DNA from: an uncultured Chloroflexia bacterium
GTDB lineage: Bacteria; Chloroflexota; Limnocylindria; Limnocylindrales; CSP1-4
Assembly (NCBI GenBank): GCA_963697135.1
Contig: CAVOMZ010000016.1
Span: 152,801-216,800 of the forward strand
Reading direction: 5' to 3'
DNA length: 64,000 bases
The position numbers and the translations under genes were made by a program. Shown here one piece after another: positions 9,707 through 14,531 of the stretch; within the stretch, counting starts at the first letter, position 1, and the number at the start of each line of letters is the position of its first letter. The notes under the pieces were generated by a model. It had not been told where the DNA came from. It worked only from the letters and a program-made list of their open reading frames with translations, and made no database searches.

Positions 9707-11182
9707 ATGCCCAGCGTCGCTACCTCGATCCCCGAGCTCCTCGGCCTCCTCGGCCCGTCTGCGAGCGTAGTCCGACGGCCGGCTCGTGATCTCGGACGAG
9801 GCGGCCTTCCGGGCGACGACGATTCGGGACCTGGCCTGGACGGCCGCCTTCAGCGCCGACGATCCGACGGTCGAGGCGGCGCGCTGGCTCGTCTGGGAGG
9901 CGAGCCTCGAGCTCGGGCGCCCATTCGGCCAGCATCCAGGACCTGTACCTCGCCCGATCGCGGGGCGAGGTCCATGGCTTCACCGTCCCGGCGATCAACC
10001 TGCGCGCCCAGACGTTCGACATGGCCCGGACGATCTTCGAGACGGCCGAGGCGGGCGGCGTCGGGGCCCTGATCCTCGAGCTGGCCCGGAGCGAGCAGAC
10101 GTACACCTACCAACGGCCGGCCGAGTACGCGACGAGCGTCCTGGCCGGGGCGATCGCGGCGAACTGGCAGCATCCGGTCTTCATCCAGGGCGACCACTAC
10201 CAGTTCAATGCGGCGAAGTATCAGGCCGATCCCGAGAAGATGACCGAGGAGATTCGGGGCGCCTGCCGACAGGCGATCGCGGTCGGCTACCGGAACATCG
10301 ACATCGACAGCTCGACCCTGGTCGACCTCAGCCAGCCGAACGTCGATCTCGAGCAGCGCCAGAACTACGAGCGGGCGGCGGAGCTGACGGCCCTGATCCG
10401 CGAGCTCGAGCCGGCCGGGATCACGATCAGCGTCGGCGGCGAGATCGGCGAGGTCGGCAAGCAGAACTCGACCGAGCCCGAGCTGCGGGCCTACCTCGAT
10501 GGCTTCCGGGCCGAGCTCGAGCGACGCTCGCCAGGCGCGACCGGGATCAGCAAGGTCAGCCTCCAGACCGGCACGAGCCACGGCGGCGTGCCGCTGCCAG
10601 ACGGCTCGATCGCCGCCGTCAAGCTCGACTTCGAGGTGATCCGGCGGCTCGGCGAGGTCGCCCGCGAGTACGGCCTGGCCGGGGCGGTCCAGCACGGCGC
10701 GAGCACCCTGCCCGACGAGCTGTTCCATCACTTCCCGGCGGTCGAGGCGGCCGAGATCCACCTCGCGACCGGCTTCCAGAACGCCCTCTTCGACAACCCG
10801 GCCTTCCCGGCCGAGCTGCTCAAGGCGATCGACGCCTGGTGCTACTCCGATGCCGCCGACGAGCGCAAGCCCGGCCAGACCGACGAGCAGTTCGTGTACA
10901 CGACCCGCAAGAAGGCGATCGGGCCGTTCAAGCGGGAGCTGTGGGACCTGCCCGAGAAGGACCAGATCCTGGCCGACCAGGCGGCCAAGATCGGCTTCCT
11001 GTTCAAGGAGCTGGCGGTGGAGCGAGACGCGCCCGATGGTCGATCGCTACATCAAGCCGGTCGTCCACCATCGGCCGGCCCCGGACTCGATCCGCGAGGC
11101 GGTGAGCCGCGAGCTGACCCCGCGCGCCCTGCCGGTCCCGCTGTCGGCCCGCGCCCGCCCCGAGCTCGGCAGATTCCGCTGA
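9707..11182 (+). CDS. Class II fructose-bisphosphate aldolase family protein (frameshifted; end approximate)
   Basis: FIQGDHYQ, NIDIDSSTL, VGGEIGEVG, QTGTSHGG, VQHGASTLP and EIHLATGFQ. Confidence 0.8.
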
Positions 11183-11347
11183 CGAGCCCGGGGCCCGTCG
11201 GCGAGCCCCGCGGCCCGCGCCCGCGCCCGCCGGCCCGACTCGGCAGATTCCGCTGACGAGCGCTGGGCTGGCCCCTCGGCGCAGCCTCCGAGTCCCGCGC
11301 CCGCGCTCTGCGGCGGCGGCCCGACTCGGCAGATTCCGCTGACGAGC
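11157..11347 (+). repeat. Three direct repeats of ~29 bp GCCCGA(G)CTCGGCAGATTCCGCTGACGAGC
   Basis: Copies at ~11157-11187, 11233-11261 and 11319-11347, separated by GC-rich 45- and 57-bp spacers. Confidence 0.9.
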
Positions 11348-11387
11348 GCGCGAAGGTCCTTCGCAAGGCAGAAACAGCCAATCTAGG

Positions 11388-12152
11388 TCAGCGAACGCCC
11401 GTTCCGGGACGACCTCCGTGCTCAGATCCGACCGTTCGATCCGCGGGAGCTGCCACTCCTGTGCGGCGACCGACCTGCGTGCGGCGTGGAGCGGAAACTG
11501 CCAAAAAGAGGAGCCCGGAGATCGACCCGCTCGGGGCCCGACACCAGGCTCGAACCTGCCGGGTGCGCAGCGGGTAGGCGCCGTCGATGATCGAAGCGAA
11601 CCGCGCGACCCTGCGGCGCTCGGTTCGACCCTCGGGCAGGATCAGGAGGCGGCCGACCGAGCTGGCTGGCCAGCCCAGCGATGTGGCGATTGTCGGCGCG
11701 AGGCGGACCTTCTCATCGTGCTTGCGCAGGGTGGCCTCGATCGAGGCGAGCTCGGACTTGACCTCGATCACCAGGAGGCAGCCGCTCGAAGCATGCCAGG
11801 CGAGGATGTCGACCGATCCGCGCTCGCCCCACTCGGAATACGACACCTCGGCTCTTGTCTGCCAGCCGAGGAGCTTCAACCAGGTGATGGCCGCAGCCAT
11901 GATCGACGCATGTCGCTCGTCGAGGAGGCGGTCGAGGTCTGCGCCGAGGCCCCACACGGAACCTTCGAACGACAGGCCGAAGACCGCCGTGATCCGGCGA
12001 ACGCTGGCGACGCCGACACCCTCGAGCCGACCCAGCTCCAGGTCCGAGATGACCGACCGCCCAAGGCCCGCGCGTTGCGCGAGGTCGACCTGCCGCCAGC
12101 CGCGCCGCAGCCGCAGCGCTCGGAGCAGGCGGCCGAGCTTCCGATCATCCAT
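11388..12152 (-). CDS. XRE-family HTH fused to a PD-(D/E)XK restriction-endonuclease-like domain
   Basis: N-terminal LRALRLRRGWRQVDLAQRAGLGRSVISDLELG (XRE HTH). C-terminal EVSYSEWGERGSVDILAWH...LLVIEVKS (D...E-x-K). Confidence 0.8.
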   Translation of the reverse strand: MDDRKLGRLLRALRLRRGWRQVDLAQRAGLGRSVISDLELGRLEGVGVASVRRITAVFGLSFEGSVWGLGADLDRLLDERHASIMAAAITWLKLLGWQTRAEVSYSEWGERGSVDILAWHASSGCLLVIEVKSELASIEATLRKHDEKVRLAPTIATSLGWPASSVGRLLILPEGRTERRRVARFASIIDGAYPLRTRQVRAWCRAPSGSISGLLFLAVSAPRRTQVGRRTGVAAPADRTVGSEHGGRPGTGVR

Positions 12153-12383
12153 CGTCGCCGAAGGATCGTCGGCCGCGGTTCGTTGGCGCTTATGAGGAAC
12201 CAGTCGTCCCATTCCGCCGTGCGCAGCACCGAGGCTGGTCGATCCAGCCTGTCGGGGGCCGTCTCACAGGGGACCGGCCAGCGCCTTCGAACGTCCTCGT
12301 GCTCATGGAAGGTCGGCTGGATAGAAGCTGGCAACCATCGCGCGCCGGCCGTCGGTCAGCCGCGAAGACCCAGGGGCGGCTCT

Positions 12384-12628
12384 GGGCGGAATGTGACGAG
12401 TTGCGGCACGGCGATGGCCCGCCGGACACCCAGTCGGTCGCGGGCGGCCGAGGGCGGAATGTGCCGTCTCGACGGGGTCGAGCGAGGCTCGGGACGATCC
12501 TCCAGACGGCCGAAGGCGGAATCTGCCGAATTCGGCGCAGCCGAATGTCCACTACGCGGCCGAGGGCGGAATCTGCCGATTCGGCGGAGCCGAATGTCCA
12601 CACGCGGCTACGAGCGGATTGTGCGGCG
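12384..12628 (+). repeat. About five copies of core GCGGAAT(C/G)TG(C/A)CG, the reverse complement of the 11157-11347 core; includes a ~50-bp tandem duplication
   Basis: Cores near 12386, 12454, 12516, 12566 and a degenerate one at 12614. The unit GGCCGA(A/G)GGCGGAATCTGCCGA(A)TTCGGCG.AGCCGAATGTCCAC occurs at 12508 and 12558. Confidence 0.85.
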
Positions 12629-12647
12629 CGCCTCGTGCGAATCCCCG

Positions 12648-12676
12648 TTGACTCTGCTCCGGACCACACCTATCCT
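12648..12676 (+). promoter_or_regulatory. Sigma70-type promoter for the APC permease operon
   Basis: TTGACT-17 nt-TATCCT. Confidence 0.55.
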
Positions 12677-12802
12677 GCGCCGCAAGCCTGTCCGATGAGG
12701 GAGCCGGACGGGTTGAATCCGGTGGTTCCTCGCGGCTCTTCGTGGGTCAGGGCCTGGCGCGACATCCCCCGGTCGACGCCCGGCGCAAGAGGAGGGTTGT
12801 TC

Positions 12803-14389
12803 GTGTCGGGTCCAACGAGCACCGCTGACCAGGCGGCGCGCGATGATGCGCACCTTGAAAGCCTGGGCATCAAGCCGGAGCTGAAACGGTCGCTCGGGTT
12901 CCTGTCGAACTTCGCGGTCGCGTTCAGCCTACATCAGCGTCTCGACCGGAACCTACACCCTGATCGGCCTTGGCCTGGCCGTCGGCGGCCCGTCGTTCTT
13001 CTGGTCCTGGCCGCTGGTCGTCCTGGGCCAGCTCTTCGTGGCCCTCAACTTCGCCGAGCTGTCGAGCCACTTCCCAGTCGCGGGTCGATCTACCAGTGGT
13101 CGAAGCGGCTCTCGAACCGGACCCTTGGCTTCTTCACCGGCTGGATCTATTTCTGGGCCGGCGTCCTGACCGTCACCGCCGTCGCGGCGACCGTGCCGCT
13201 CGTGCTGCTCGAGCATCTTCGGCTTCAGCCTCAGCGCGCCGTCACCCCTGCCGGCCGTCAATAACCTGATCTTCTGGGCCATCCTGACCCTGATCACGAC
13301 GACCCTGATCAACGGCTTCGGCGTACGGCTCCTGTCGATCATCAACAACCTGGGCGTCGCCGCCGAGATCGCCGGGAATGCTCGTCTTCGCCCTGATCCT
13401 GCTGATCTTCTTCCACAACCAGCCGTTGTCGGTTCTGACCACGACGGCAGGCCTGGAGAATCGAACCGGGCGGCAGCTACACCGCGGTCTTCCTGGTCGC
13501 GATGTTCATGTCCCTGTTCGTCATCTATGGCTTCGACACGGCCGGGACCTTCGGCGAGGAGACGGTCGATCCCGGCCGCCAGGCCCCGCGCGGGATCCTG
13601 GCCGCGATCCTGCTCTCGGGCGCGGTCGGCTTCGTCTTCCTGCTGGCGATCATCCTGTCGTTCAAGGATGTGCCGGCCGAGATCTCCTCGGCCAGGCCTC
13701 GGACTCCCGATCGGCGACACGATCCTGGCCAACATGAGGACTTCGGCAAGATCTACCTGGCGGTGATGCTCTCGCCGTGTTCGTCTGCACGATGGCGATC
13801 CAGGGTGCGACGACCCGCCTGATGTTCTCGATGGGCCGCGATCGGCGGATGCCCCTCGGCGGGATCTGGGGCCACGTCAACACCCGCTTCCGGACGCCGG
13901 CCAATGCCGCCATCGCGGTCGGCGTCCTGGCCGCGATCCCGTTCCTCGTGAGCGACAGCCCGGGCCACTCGCGATCGGCGCGACCGGCCTGATCTACCGA
14001 GCTACTTCCTGTGCAACTTCGGCGTCCTGCTGCGCCCGCTCGAAGGGCTGGCCGCACAGGGCGCCTGGTTCAAGCTCGGCAGCTGGGGCATCGTCATCAA
14101 CATCCTGCCTTGATCTGCGGCGGGATCATGATCGTGAACTTCGCCCTCTGGAACAATCCCGCCTTCGGCGACTGGGGCAACTCCCTGCGCGACCTCACCA
14201 ATCCGACGATCAATACGCTTTCGGTCCTGGGAAGCGAGACCGCTGACCGGATTGCCCGCCTGGCCGATCTTCGAGGTCTTCCTCGGGATCGTCCTGATCT
14301 TCGGCCTGATCTACTACCTGGCCGTGGCCCGCGGTCGGGCAGACACCGTCCAGGCCGACCTGGCCACCGGTGAGGCCACGATCGGCTGA
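12803..14389 (+). CDS. APC-family amino acid/amine permease (multiple frameshifts)
   Basis: GIKPELKRSLGFLSNFAVAFS, FAELSSHFP, GSIYQWSKRL, YGFDTAGTFGEET and RLMFSMGRD..P; AGGAGG SD. Confidence 0.85.
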
Positions 14390-14531
14390 GCCCGGCAGGC
14401 TCCAACGCAACCACGACGGTGCGGCGAGCGATTGCCGCGCCGTCGGCGCGTCATGGCCGAAGATATCTGGAGACGGCGGGGTAGCCGGGGAGCCCGAAGA
14501 TGATCCCGGCGCGACCGGACCAGGAGGCAGC

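Follow-up and report, generated by a model that had tools for sequence, protein, structure and literature searches.

A helix-turn-helix nuclease gene and its flanking inverted repeats form a candidate REPIN/RAYT-like system in Limnocylindria

What does a lone gene for a helix-turn-helix (HTH) protein with a restriction-type nuclease domain do among oppositely oriented copies of one short DNA motif? The question is raised by a locus in a 64,000-nucleotide stretch of DNA, here called the window (contig C16:152801-216800), from the metagenome-assembled genome (MAG) of an uncultured member of the Limnocylindrales (class Limnocylindria, phylum Chloroflexota); this MAG, G000, comprises 3.06 Mb in 28 contigs and is 63% complete. 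An earlier reading of the letters alone, the original prediction, had taken the gene and the ~13-bp motif copies around it for a one-gene cassette whose protein recognises its own flanking motifs and spreads or maintains them. Our analysis leads to a similar reading, to which we give a probability of roughly 55%: that the locus belongs to a system like the repetitive extragenic palindromic (REP) doublets (REPINs) with their REP-associated tyrosine transposase (RAYT), or like an insertion sequence (IS), run by the HTH-nuclease and not by a Y1 or DDE transposase, in which the protein would recognise the boxes and be needed for the repeats to spread or be maintained.

The motif, CGGCAGATTCCGC, belongs to an element of ~180 bp, in whose bipartite terminal inverted repeats (~38 bp each) it forms the outer box. 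Two complete copies of this element flank the gene, and the ‘arrays’ around it are tandem extra copies of outward-facing arms. The features of the locus, in window coordinates, are as follows.

11167..11179, + strand: extra outer arm, copy 1, exact box CGGCAGATTCCGC (repeat search)
11241..11253, + strand: extra outer arm, copy 2, exact box, part of tandem units of 74 and 86 bp
11325..11505, no strand: complete downstream inverted-repeat element, with boxes at 11327-11339 (+) and 11491-11503 (–) and centre CGTGCTCAG at 11417-11425
11388..12152, – strand: XRE-HTH / PD-(D/E)XK gene, 254 amino acids from MDDRK (open reading frame (ORF), Pfam, homolog alignment)
11490..11915, – strand: predicted PD-(D/E)XK nuclease-fold domain, residues ~80-221 (fold matches, invariant residues)
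11847-11849, 11808-11810, 11763-11765 and 11757-11759, – strand: predicted catalytic codons E102, D115, E130 and K132, respectively (alignment)
11973..12140, – strand: XRE-type HTH, residues ~5-60 (Pfam HTH_31 E=3.6e-9, HTH_3 E=1e-7)
12204..12399, no strand: complete upstream inverted-repeat element, with arms at 12204-12230 and 12373-12399 and centre CGTGCTCAT at 12298-12306
12454..12466, – strand: extra outer arm, box with one mismatch (repeat and motif search)
12516..12615, – strand: two near-identical ~50-bp tandem units with exact boxes at 12516-12528 and 12566-12578
12635..12676, + strand: right border of the inserted block, the conserved permease promoter region GTGCGAATC..TTGACT..TATCCT (conservation in relatives)

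Without mismatch, the motif occurs on the + strand at positions 11167, 11241 and 11327 (74 and 86 bp apart), the three direct repeats that the original prediction had placed downstream of the gene, and on the – strand at 12516 and 12566, within the ~50-bp tandem duplication (12516-12565 and 12566-12615) that it had noted among reverse-complement copies upstream. Variants on the – strand occur at 12454 (one mismatch), 12386 (two) and 11491 (two), and a degenerate further box lies beyond the tandem units at 12614-12625. All five exact copies fall inside 1.4 kb; at up to two mismatches the 64-kb window holds 13 matches against 5.8 expected (standard deviation 2.6), a count reached in 1 of 100 shuffles. 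Two parts of the earlier description have to be recast. The opposed copies said to bracket the gene as two arrays are real, but the primary units are the two complete elements, whose outer arms are amplified; likewise, the variant at ~11491 in the 3′ end of the gene is real, with two mismatches, but is rather the inner arm of the complete downstream element. Written in gene orientation, with L and R for left and right arms, the locus reads [L L L L-R] gene [L-R R R] in G000 and [L-R] gene [L-R R] in G006, the closest complete genome and our main comparison for G000 loci; the stretches that hold the extra outer arms in G000 (11124-11231 and 12422-12611) are without counterpart at the syntenic G006 locus.

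The two elements sit differently with respect to the gene. The upstream element ends 52 bp ahead of the start codon and is conserved in G006. The downstream element overlaps the 3′ end of the gene: its gene-proximal half encodes the C-terminal tail of the protein (residues ~217-254), its inner arm at 11491 encodes residues ~217-221 (L-A-V-S-A), and tail residues 218-253 are 61% identical to a gene-free element at C3:39663-39770. The inserted block is a three-part cassette, made of an element, the gene and a second element forming the gene’s 3′ end, placed between the aldolase stop and the permease promoter. The frame of the neighbouring aldolase (10850-11182) runs 23 codons beyond the stop of its relatives (11114-11116), to a TGA directly behind the first repeat box, so that the insertion has supplied the aldolase with a new C-terminal tail.

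The protein itself is predicted to be an XRE HTH fused to a PD-(D/E)XK domain with intact catalytic residues. The ORF (11388-12212, – strand) is open in the window, in line with the original description of a frameshift-free gene; conservation places the start at the ATG of 12152 and not at the one further upstream (12212), and residues are counted from this start (MDD..). The XRE HTH that the original prediction had recognised scores above the Pfam cut-offs for both HTH_31 (PF13560; 37.2 bits against 27) and HTH_3 (PF01381; 32.3 bits against 23), at residues 26-83 of the long ORF, and the predicted model of this part matches C.AhdI (Z 11.3), HipB (Z 11.0) and C.BclI (Z 10.4). The D...E-x-K nuclease motif of the original prediction corresponds to D115 and E130-x-K132, within a fold that structure prediction places in the PD-(D/E)XK class: E102, D115 (in GERGSxD), E130 and K132 (both in LLVIExK) are invariant in 23 of 23 aligned homologs, and the AlphaFold2 model (predicted local distance difference test, pLDDT, 87.6) has nuclease-domain strands at residues 98-104, 113-120, 125-131 and 165-173, with low confidence (pLDDT about 50) for the tail beyond residue 222. 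Fold matches of the nuclease domain were Upx (Z 9.8 over 115 residues, root-mean-square deviation 2.9), AF1548 (Z 9.3) and NucS (Z 9.1), and Foldseek returned SduA and the R2 endonuclease domain for it; the matched structures were 9dou and 8gh6 (R2), 8ps5 (SduA), and 5gke and 2vld (NucS). PADLOC, ESM Atlas and Pfam gave no named family above cut-off for the nuclease domain, UPF0102 being a weak Pfam match under the cut-off (E=0.015). PADLOC profiles matched the HTH part only (capH, control protein), and the HipB/Y4mF-type antitoxin profile TIGR03070 reached 41.1 bits, under its cut-off of 71.65. No toxin or methyltransferase gene lies next door, the neighbours being the aldolase and the permease.

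How far does the element extend beyond this locus? Across G000, and allowing at most one mismatch, CGGCAGATTCCGC has 61 matches compared with 11 for the reversed control pattern, and at some twenty loci a – copy lies about 150-165 bp beyond a + copy. Alignment of 22 such +/– box pairs (spacing 132-186 bp) revealed conserved arms and a conserved centre. The arm is ~38 bp long and bipartite, with the outer box TCGGCAGATTCCGC, a spacer of about 10 bp and the inner box GGTCGGTCG; the centre carries CTGAGCACG or its complement, and element interiors keep a similar length with no conservation of sequence. A hidden Markov model of the arm gave 79 hits at E<1, 58 of them at E<0.01; they make up 30 clusters, and in 24 of these both arm orientations occur. 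Gene-free copies of the motif, which the original prediction had proposed to count, are thus dispersed, with the element carried at ~24 intergenic loci in G000. In many clusters the outer arms have extra copies in tandem, as in C7:139125 (+++---) and C3:39659 (+----).

Two observations concern the surroundings of these copies. About six tandem copies of a short unit, CCTCGGACGTGAGGCGCTAGCCCAGGCCGA, lie directly beside an element (L001:1313-1500; G000 C3:39473-39660), and the orthologous G006 locus differs in sequence at this tandem block. Further, a region of ~9 kb (L045:4789-13935; G000 C18:42788-51934) that is mostly missing from G006 has a complete element at one edge (C18:42795) and a single arm at the other (C18:51703), and may be an island bounded by the repeats.

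The position of the elements relative to genes bears on whether they act as DNA or as RNA. Among the 22 clusters outside the window, 8 have convergent ORFs on either side, 13 have co-directional ones and none has divergent ones, with one undetermined (ORF calls were crude, from stop to stop), and the termini of the elements pair in RNA folds. The elements could accordingly be 3′-end stabilisers, terminators or processing sites behind genes, with the mRNA of the nuclease gene using the same structures and the protein having no part in their spread. We consider this highly improbable: the elements share no single conserved hairpin, their folding z-scores are only -0.3 to -5.9 against simple shuffles, Rfam is without a match, and neither gene-specific box variants nor presence/absence polymorphism with flanking duplications, both described below, would be explained. 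A known RNA family was excluded by an Rfam search of 10900-12900 that gave 0 matches at E up to 5, and a single long hairpin by the folds, which pair the termini and leave the interiors branched and non-conserved (mononucleotide shuffles, 30 each).

At solo loci, flanking DNA is about 88-95% identical between G000 and G006. Five G000 clusters are orthologous in G006 (C3:39659, C18:40360, C15:34927, C15:18976 and C8:24656), and three lie in inserts missing from G006.

C7:139125: insert of 742 bp, with a 21-bp flanking direct duplication (one mismatch)
C6:254798: insert of 286 bp, with a 19-bp flanking direct duplication (one mismatch)
C13:337451: 488 bp in G000 compared with 10 bp in G006, with a 19-bp host flank three times in tandem

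Flanking direct repeats that match at 18 of 19 positions occur at 3 of the 24 clusters, whereas none of 86 mismatched flank pairs reached 17. The number of copies in the outer arrays differs between G000 and G006 at orthologous loci, from which it follows that these arrays grow in place. We also considered nested insertion into the element centre as a source of L L L c R R R arrays and found it unsupported, the outer units being near-identical tandem copies of arm plus linker and the arrays differing in size between the two genomes at orthologous loci.

One of these loci, C15:34927, also shows repeated occupation of a single junction. It is empty in G003, G015 and G001, holds a p1-type element in G000 and G006 and an element of its own type in G012, and carries a different type plus an ORF in G011 and other inserts in G014, G008 and G005. 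The G000 and G012 interiors are not alignable by eye, and the sequence pattern tentatively favours independent insertion at this junction over concerted evolution of the arms.

The cassette with the gene is polymorphic in a similar way. We compared its site across 16 genomes of the genus (G000-G015, that is, G000 and 15 relatives), in which the aldolase and the permease are neighbours in every case that the contigs let us see. Four of the 16 have the cassette (G000, G006, G014 and, inverted, G004), and the gene is missing at the same junction in 11 of the 15 relatives; in G001 the site is split over contigs. Where the gene is missing, the gap between flanking high-scoring segment pairs (HSPs) is 13 bp in G005, 16 in G002, 22 in G013, 23 in G015, 112 in G011, 127 in G007, 135 in G009, 234 in G010, 287 in G008, 298 in G003 and 314 in G012. 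The shortest of these gaps, 13-23 bp in G005, G002, G013 and G015, are the empty site that the original prediction had called for at the aldolase-permease junction of relatives, and the presence of the block as a unit in some genomes and not in others agrees with its one-gene cassette. From the aldolase stop to the conserved permease promoter region there are ~8 bp in G002, G013 and G015 and ~40 bp in G005. A solo element of its own type occupies the junction in G010, G003 and G012. The proteins encoded at this site are only 62-64% identical, with best flank HSPs at 87-91%, and are not resolved as a group in the tree. No clean target duplication was found for the whole cassette.

A fixed site that holds the cassette in four genomes (inverted in one) and lacks the gene in 11, with very divergent alleles, would also suit a selfish gene of the homing-endonuclease kind, which would cut empty sites and be copied into them by repair after DNA exchange between strains, leaving the elements as scars or by-products. 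The repeated hits on the same junctions in different species, and the tandem duplication of host flank beside arrays, would fit as well. We nevertheless regard such homing as improbable, since the four empty sites read show no common target motif, and since it would explain neither the genome-specific box variants at tens of gene-free loci nor why arms and centre are conserved when interiors are not.

To what extent, then, are gene and element linked beyond this one site? G000 holds five full-length paralogs (100, 61, 59, 47 and 43% identity to the query). The gene family is present in 18 of 18 genomes of f1, the family of G000, and in 0 of 12 of f2, a streamlined sister family. In a sample of 301 genomes from the phylum it was found in 26, G000 counted; leaving G000 aside, these were 14 of 15 in f1, 11 of 15 in f3 (a further family), 0 of 2 in f2 and none in all other families, so that among the genomes sampled the gene family is confined to Limnocylindria. 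With a cut-off of E 0.001, a large protein collection contained 1830 relatives. At most of the 24 genus loci whose flanks were read, a homologous inverted-repeat element lies 50-150 bp ahead of the start codon, and in many homologs the left arm of a second element consists of the codons directly after a conserved GLxFL, with the right arm behind the stop. In G006 the stop codon stands right behind the arm, yet the centre motif beyond it is still conserved, which indicates that conservation acts at the DNA level. We counted linkage as inverted 16-mers matching at 14 or more of 16 positions at a spacing of 100-215 bp, a definition that misses imperfect elements, including the one in the window. 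Of 33 downstream windows 11 had such a repeat, as had 10 of the 35 upstream ones; among the controls, gene interiors gave 1 in 35 and shuffled downstream windows 7 in 165. Homologs do carry the flanking repeats for which the original prediction had asked, with mixed results in more distant lineages. A chance neighbourhood of gene and repeats is ruled out by the homologous elements at homologs in other genomes.

Several loci of the family show further repeats or breaks. Paralog p3 is followed immediately downstream by a tandem array of about ten 25-bp units (L011:1209-1478; G000 C16:287717-287986), and other homologs have tandem arrays of 25-40 bp upstream, instead of or beside the element (L020, L027, L029 and L033). 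Many homologs in short-read genomes are no more than a few hundred bases away from the end of a contig (e.g., G004:C343, G001:C258, G012:C74 and G016:C78), as expected if flanking repeats break short-read assemblies. In the G006 ortholog (C1:2559597-2560357; L021) the frame changes near residue 100 and the gene is divided in two, either through a sequencing error or because the copy was inactivated recently.

Differences among paralogs in both boxes and recognition helices are what would be expected of proteins that each read boxes of their own. The boxes are variants of one theme (TGnCAnATnnCGC) that differ between paralogs, and the upstream and downstream elements of one gene have a common variant (G010, G014 and G013). 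Amplified variants always occur as +/– pairs about 155 bp apart, each genome having its own. In motif counts, which depend on the variant chosen as query pattern, CGGCAGATTCCGC scored 61 hits against 11 for the reversed control in G000 and 30 against 11 in G006, and was near background in 28 other genomes, except perhaps G001 (14 against 3). Hits to TGACAAATCGTTCAT numbered 35 against 1 in G010, 11 against 0 in G008, 9 against 1 in G003 and 2 against 0 in G000; those to TTCCGGATTATCA, with all controls at 0, numbered 20 in G008, 16 in G003, 11 in G002, 8 in G010, 6 in G005 and 0 in G000; and TGWCARATTCCGC had 49 against 0 in G012 (mostly ..TTCCAC), 27 against 0 in G007 and 15 against 2 in G004 (mostly ..ATACCGC). 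Wherever this could be checked, the amplified variant of a genome is that of the boxes at a resident gene:

G010, G008 and G003: boxes of the locus-B genes
G002, G005 and G009: 3′ arm of the locus-C genes
G004: boxes of the locus-A gene (..TACCGC)
G012: boxes of the gene with TGACAGATTTCAC (..CAC type)

Recognition helices differ between these box-variant groups in the alignment. The original prediction had looked for paralogs whose flanking motifs vary with the recognition helix, and the pairing has the expected form; it is confounded by common descent, the genomes compared being related and not independent.

A further question is what moves the elements. In G000, the intervals between outward-facing arms hold no transposase-sized unit besides the HTH-nuclease gene. 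Y1_Tnp (PF01797) was found in 0 of 6 genomes (G000, G006, G010, G008, G003 and G002) with a search that was positive in 6 of 14 known genomes as a control, and Pfam gives no Y1 match in the HTH-nuclease protein, consistent with the original proposal of an enzyme other than Y1. [quoted passage not shown] The kinship of the HTH with controller proteins of restriction-modification systems and with HipB-type autoregulators would fit this, as would an element about 50-110 bp ahead of the start codon in many homologs, a distance that suits an operator; so would the gene in G009 that lacks amplified repeats, and the young inserts that lack a donor in G000. We find this explanation rather unlikely all the same. 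Where two elements enclose a cargo, it always belongs to this gene family, the 3′ codons of the gene form an arm, and repeat variants track the boxes of resident genes in at least five gene-repeat pairs; the missing second transposase-sized unit and the missing Y1 transposase in all six genomes searched point the same way.

Were the HTH-nuclease to run the system, its HTH domain would read the boxes, and the upstream element would allow the gene to be autoregulated through the same domain. The nuclease domain would cut at or beside the arms of every genomic copy, after which host repair, possibly Ku-dependent end joining, would give rise to new copies; this repair would also leave the ~19-21-bp flanking duplications and drive the tandem growth of the outer arms. 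Gene-free copies of ~180 bp would be non-autonomous derivatives, like the REPINs of RAYT genes or the MITEs of insertion sequences. All 19 f1 genomes carry Ku and none of the 12 f2 genomes does, a division that the gene family shares and that is weakly consistent with a nuclease that cuts and a host that joins, the comparison being one of two clades only. Going further, we tentatively suggest, with clearly less confidence than we place in the general reading, that these are an undescribed class of mobile DNA, made of ~1.1-kb cassettes and their ~180-bp non-autonomous derivatives, whose sole dedicated protein would be a box-cutting HTH-PD-(D/E)XK nuclease, with pasting left to host end joining or repair synthesis that leaves ~19-21-bp duplications and growing tandem arms, and of which several diverged nuclease-repeat pairs would coexist and turn over within one bacterial class.

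A number of points weigh against giving the HTH-nuclease this role. Binding, cleavage, the route of copying and the identity of this protein as mover or maintainer of the repeats are all things that we infer; PD-(D/E)XK enzymes are hydrolases, and we know of none that acts alone as a transposase. The genome-wide transposase search covered Y1 only. The flanking duplications lie 38-180 bp outside the outer boxes, which are therefore not the exact ends of the inserts, and the inserted unit must be larger than the box-bounded core. When the three polymorphic inserts and C6:119885 were compared with G000 by blastn, only arms matched and no full-length donor appeared, so that simple copy-and-paste of whole elements is unproven; just one whole-element similarity was seen (77% over 181 bp). 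G009 has the gene with its boxes and no amplification (3 hits, 2 of them at the gene), and G006 retains 30 motif copies despite the frame break in its ortholog. One question that the original prediction had raised was whether the gene is syntenically fixed, and here the outcome is split: it is present in some genomes and missing in others at the aldolase-permease junction, but other paralog loci are syntenic across several species (locus B in five genomes, locus C in four), from which we conclude that movement of the gene is rare. Co-variation and co-occurrence of gene and repeats, and the statistics drawn from them, are confounded by shared ancestry. Finally, G000 is only 63% complete and has apparent indel errors.

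Some features around the locus stand apart from these arguments. The permease gene (window 12805-14400) is split over several frames, and soil-metagenome contigs differ from it by one base at 12928 and at 13080, which suggests assembly indel errors and not a dead gene. Between the permease promoter and its start, a leader (GTCCGATGAGGGAGCCGGAC..., window 12690-12760) is conserved in all genus genomes read and might be a regulatory RNA, with no Rfam match at E up to 5. Elsewhere on the contig, G000 C16:20400-34300 looks lower in G+C than the rest and is possibly a mis-join or a foreign segment. Short soil-metagenome contigs aligned to 10400-13400 leave 11006-11409 uncovered and show no joints, six soil DNA runs contain only 5-12% of the words, and no RNA run was listed as containing the sequence; these results bear neither way on the locus.

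How does this system compare with known ones? The closest likeness is with the REPIN/RAYT systems of proteobacteria, in which REP doublets accompany a REP-associated tyrosine transposase (PMC3116915, PMC3337134, bioRxiv 10.1101/2022.05.22.493013). In both, a low-copy and mostly vertically inherited gene is flanked by its own inverted repeats, the same repeats are dispersed as intergenic doublets (two inverted arms and a spacer) and clusters, and every lineage of the gene goes with a repeat variant of its own, a pairing confounded here by relatedness. The enzyme differs, an XRE HTH with a predicted PD-(D/E)XK nuclease standing here in place of the HUH/Y1 transposase (PF01797) described there. 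The units differ too: they are ~180 bp long, their arms are bipartite and measure ~38 bp, their centre motif is conserved, and no short REP hairpin was seen in them. A GTAG-type tag is reportedly a feature of REP sequences, and none was seen here. Moreover, one element lies inside the coding 3′ end of the gene, and, depending on the species, a single site has the gene cassette, has it inverted or lacks it.

Insertion sequences, with their familiar layout and their MITE derivatives, offer a second comparison. The outermost boxes form terminal inverted repeats, between which a single ORF extends into the distal one; the arms are ~38 bp in 22 pairs; and short non-autonomous copies bounded by the same repeats, together with flanking direct duplications, recall MITEs, of which a review exists (PMC10969869). 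Unlike in an insertion sequence, the gene here encodes no catalytic domain of the DDE, serine, tyrosine or HUH kind, a whole inverted pair makes up each end, the duplications measure ~19-21 bp and lie outside the boxes, and copies share only arms and centre.

The two parts of the protein have relatives of their own. Restriction-modification controller (C) proteins and XRE repressors of the HipB/434 type share the HTH fold and sites ahead of their own gene start, but here a nuclease domain is joined to the HTH, neither a methyltransferase nor a partner toxin is adjacent, and the sites are 150 bp apart and dispersed genome-wide. TnsA of Tn7 is a PD-(D/E)XK nuclease at work in DNA mobility; like the R2 endonuclease domain, Shedu SduA and NucS/EndoMS, it is similar in fold and catalytic motif. 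In contrast to TnsA, R2 and SduA, the present gene comes with no reverse transcriptase, TnsB-like partner or Shedu N-terminal domain. In titles and abstract openings of the literature, we found no HTH/PD-(D/E)XK gene with dispersed inverted repeats.

To our knowledge, the dispersed bacterial repeats that have a dedicated, vertically kept enzyme have so far been essentially the REP/REPIN-RAYT systems, with their single-strand HUH transposase. Here a population pattern of the REPIN/RAYT type occurs with a different enzyme, predicted to be a restriction-fold nuclease of the double-strand type joined to a reader domain like that of phage repressors. The repeats that flank these genes also explain why short-read assemblies of these soil bacteria break at them. 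If the link between gene and repeats is functional, repeat-enzyme partnerships would have evolved more than once, this would be the first case of a nuclease-plus-host-repair route for the spread of repeats, and the paralogs, with their co-diverged reader helices and DNA boxes, would form a natural set in which to study how recognition specificity changes.

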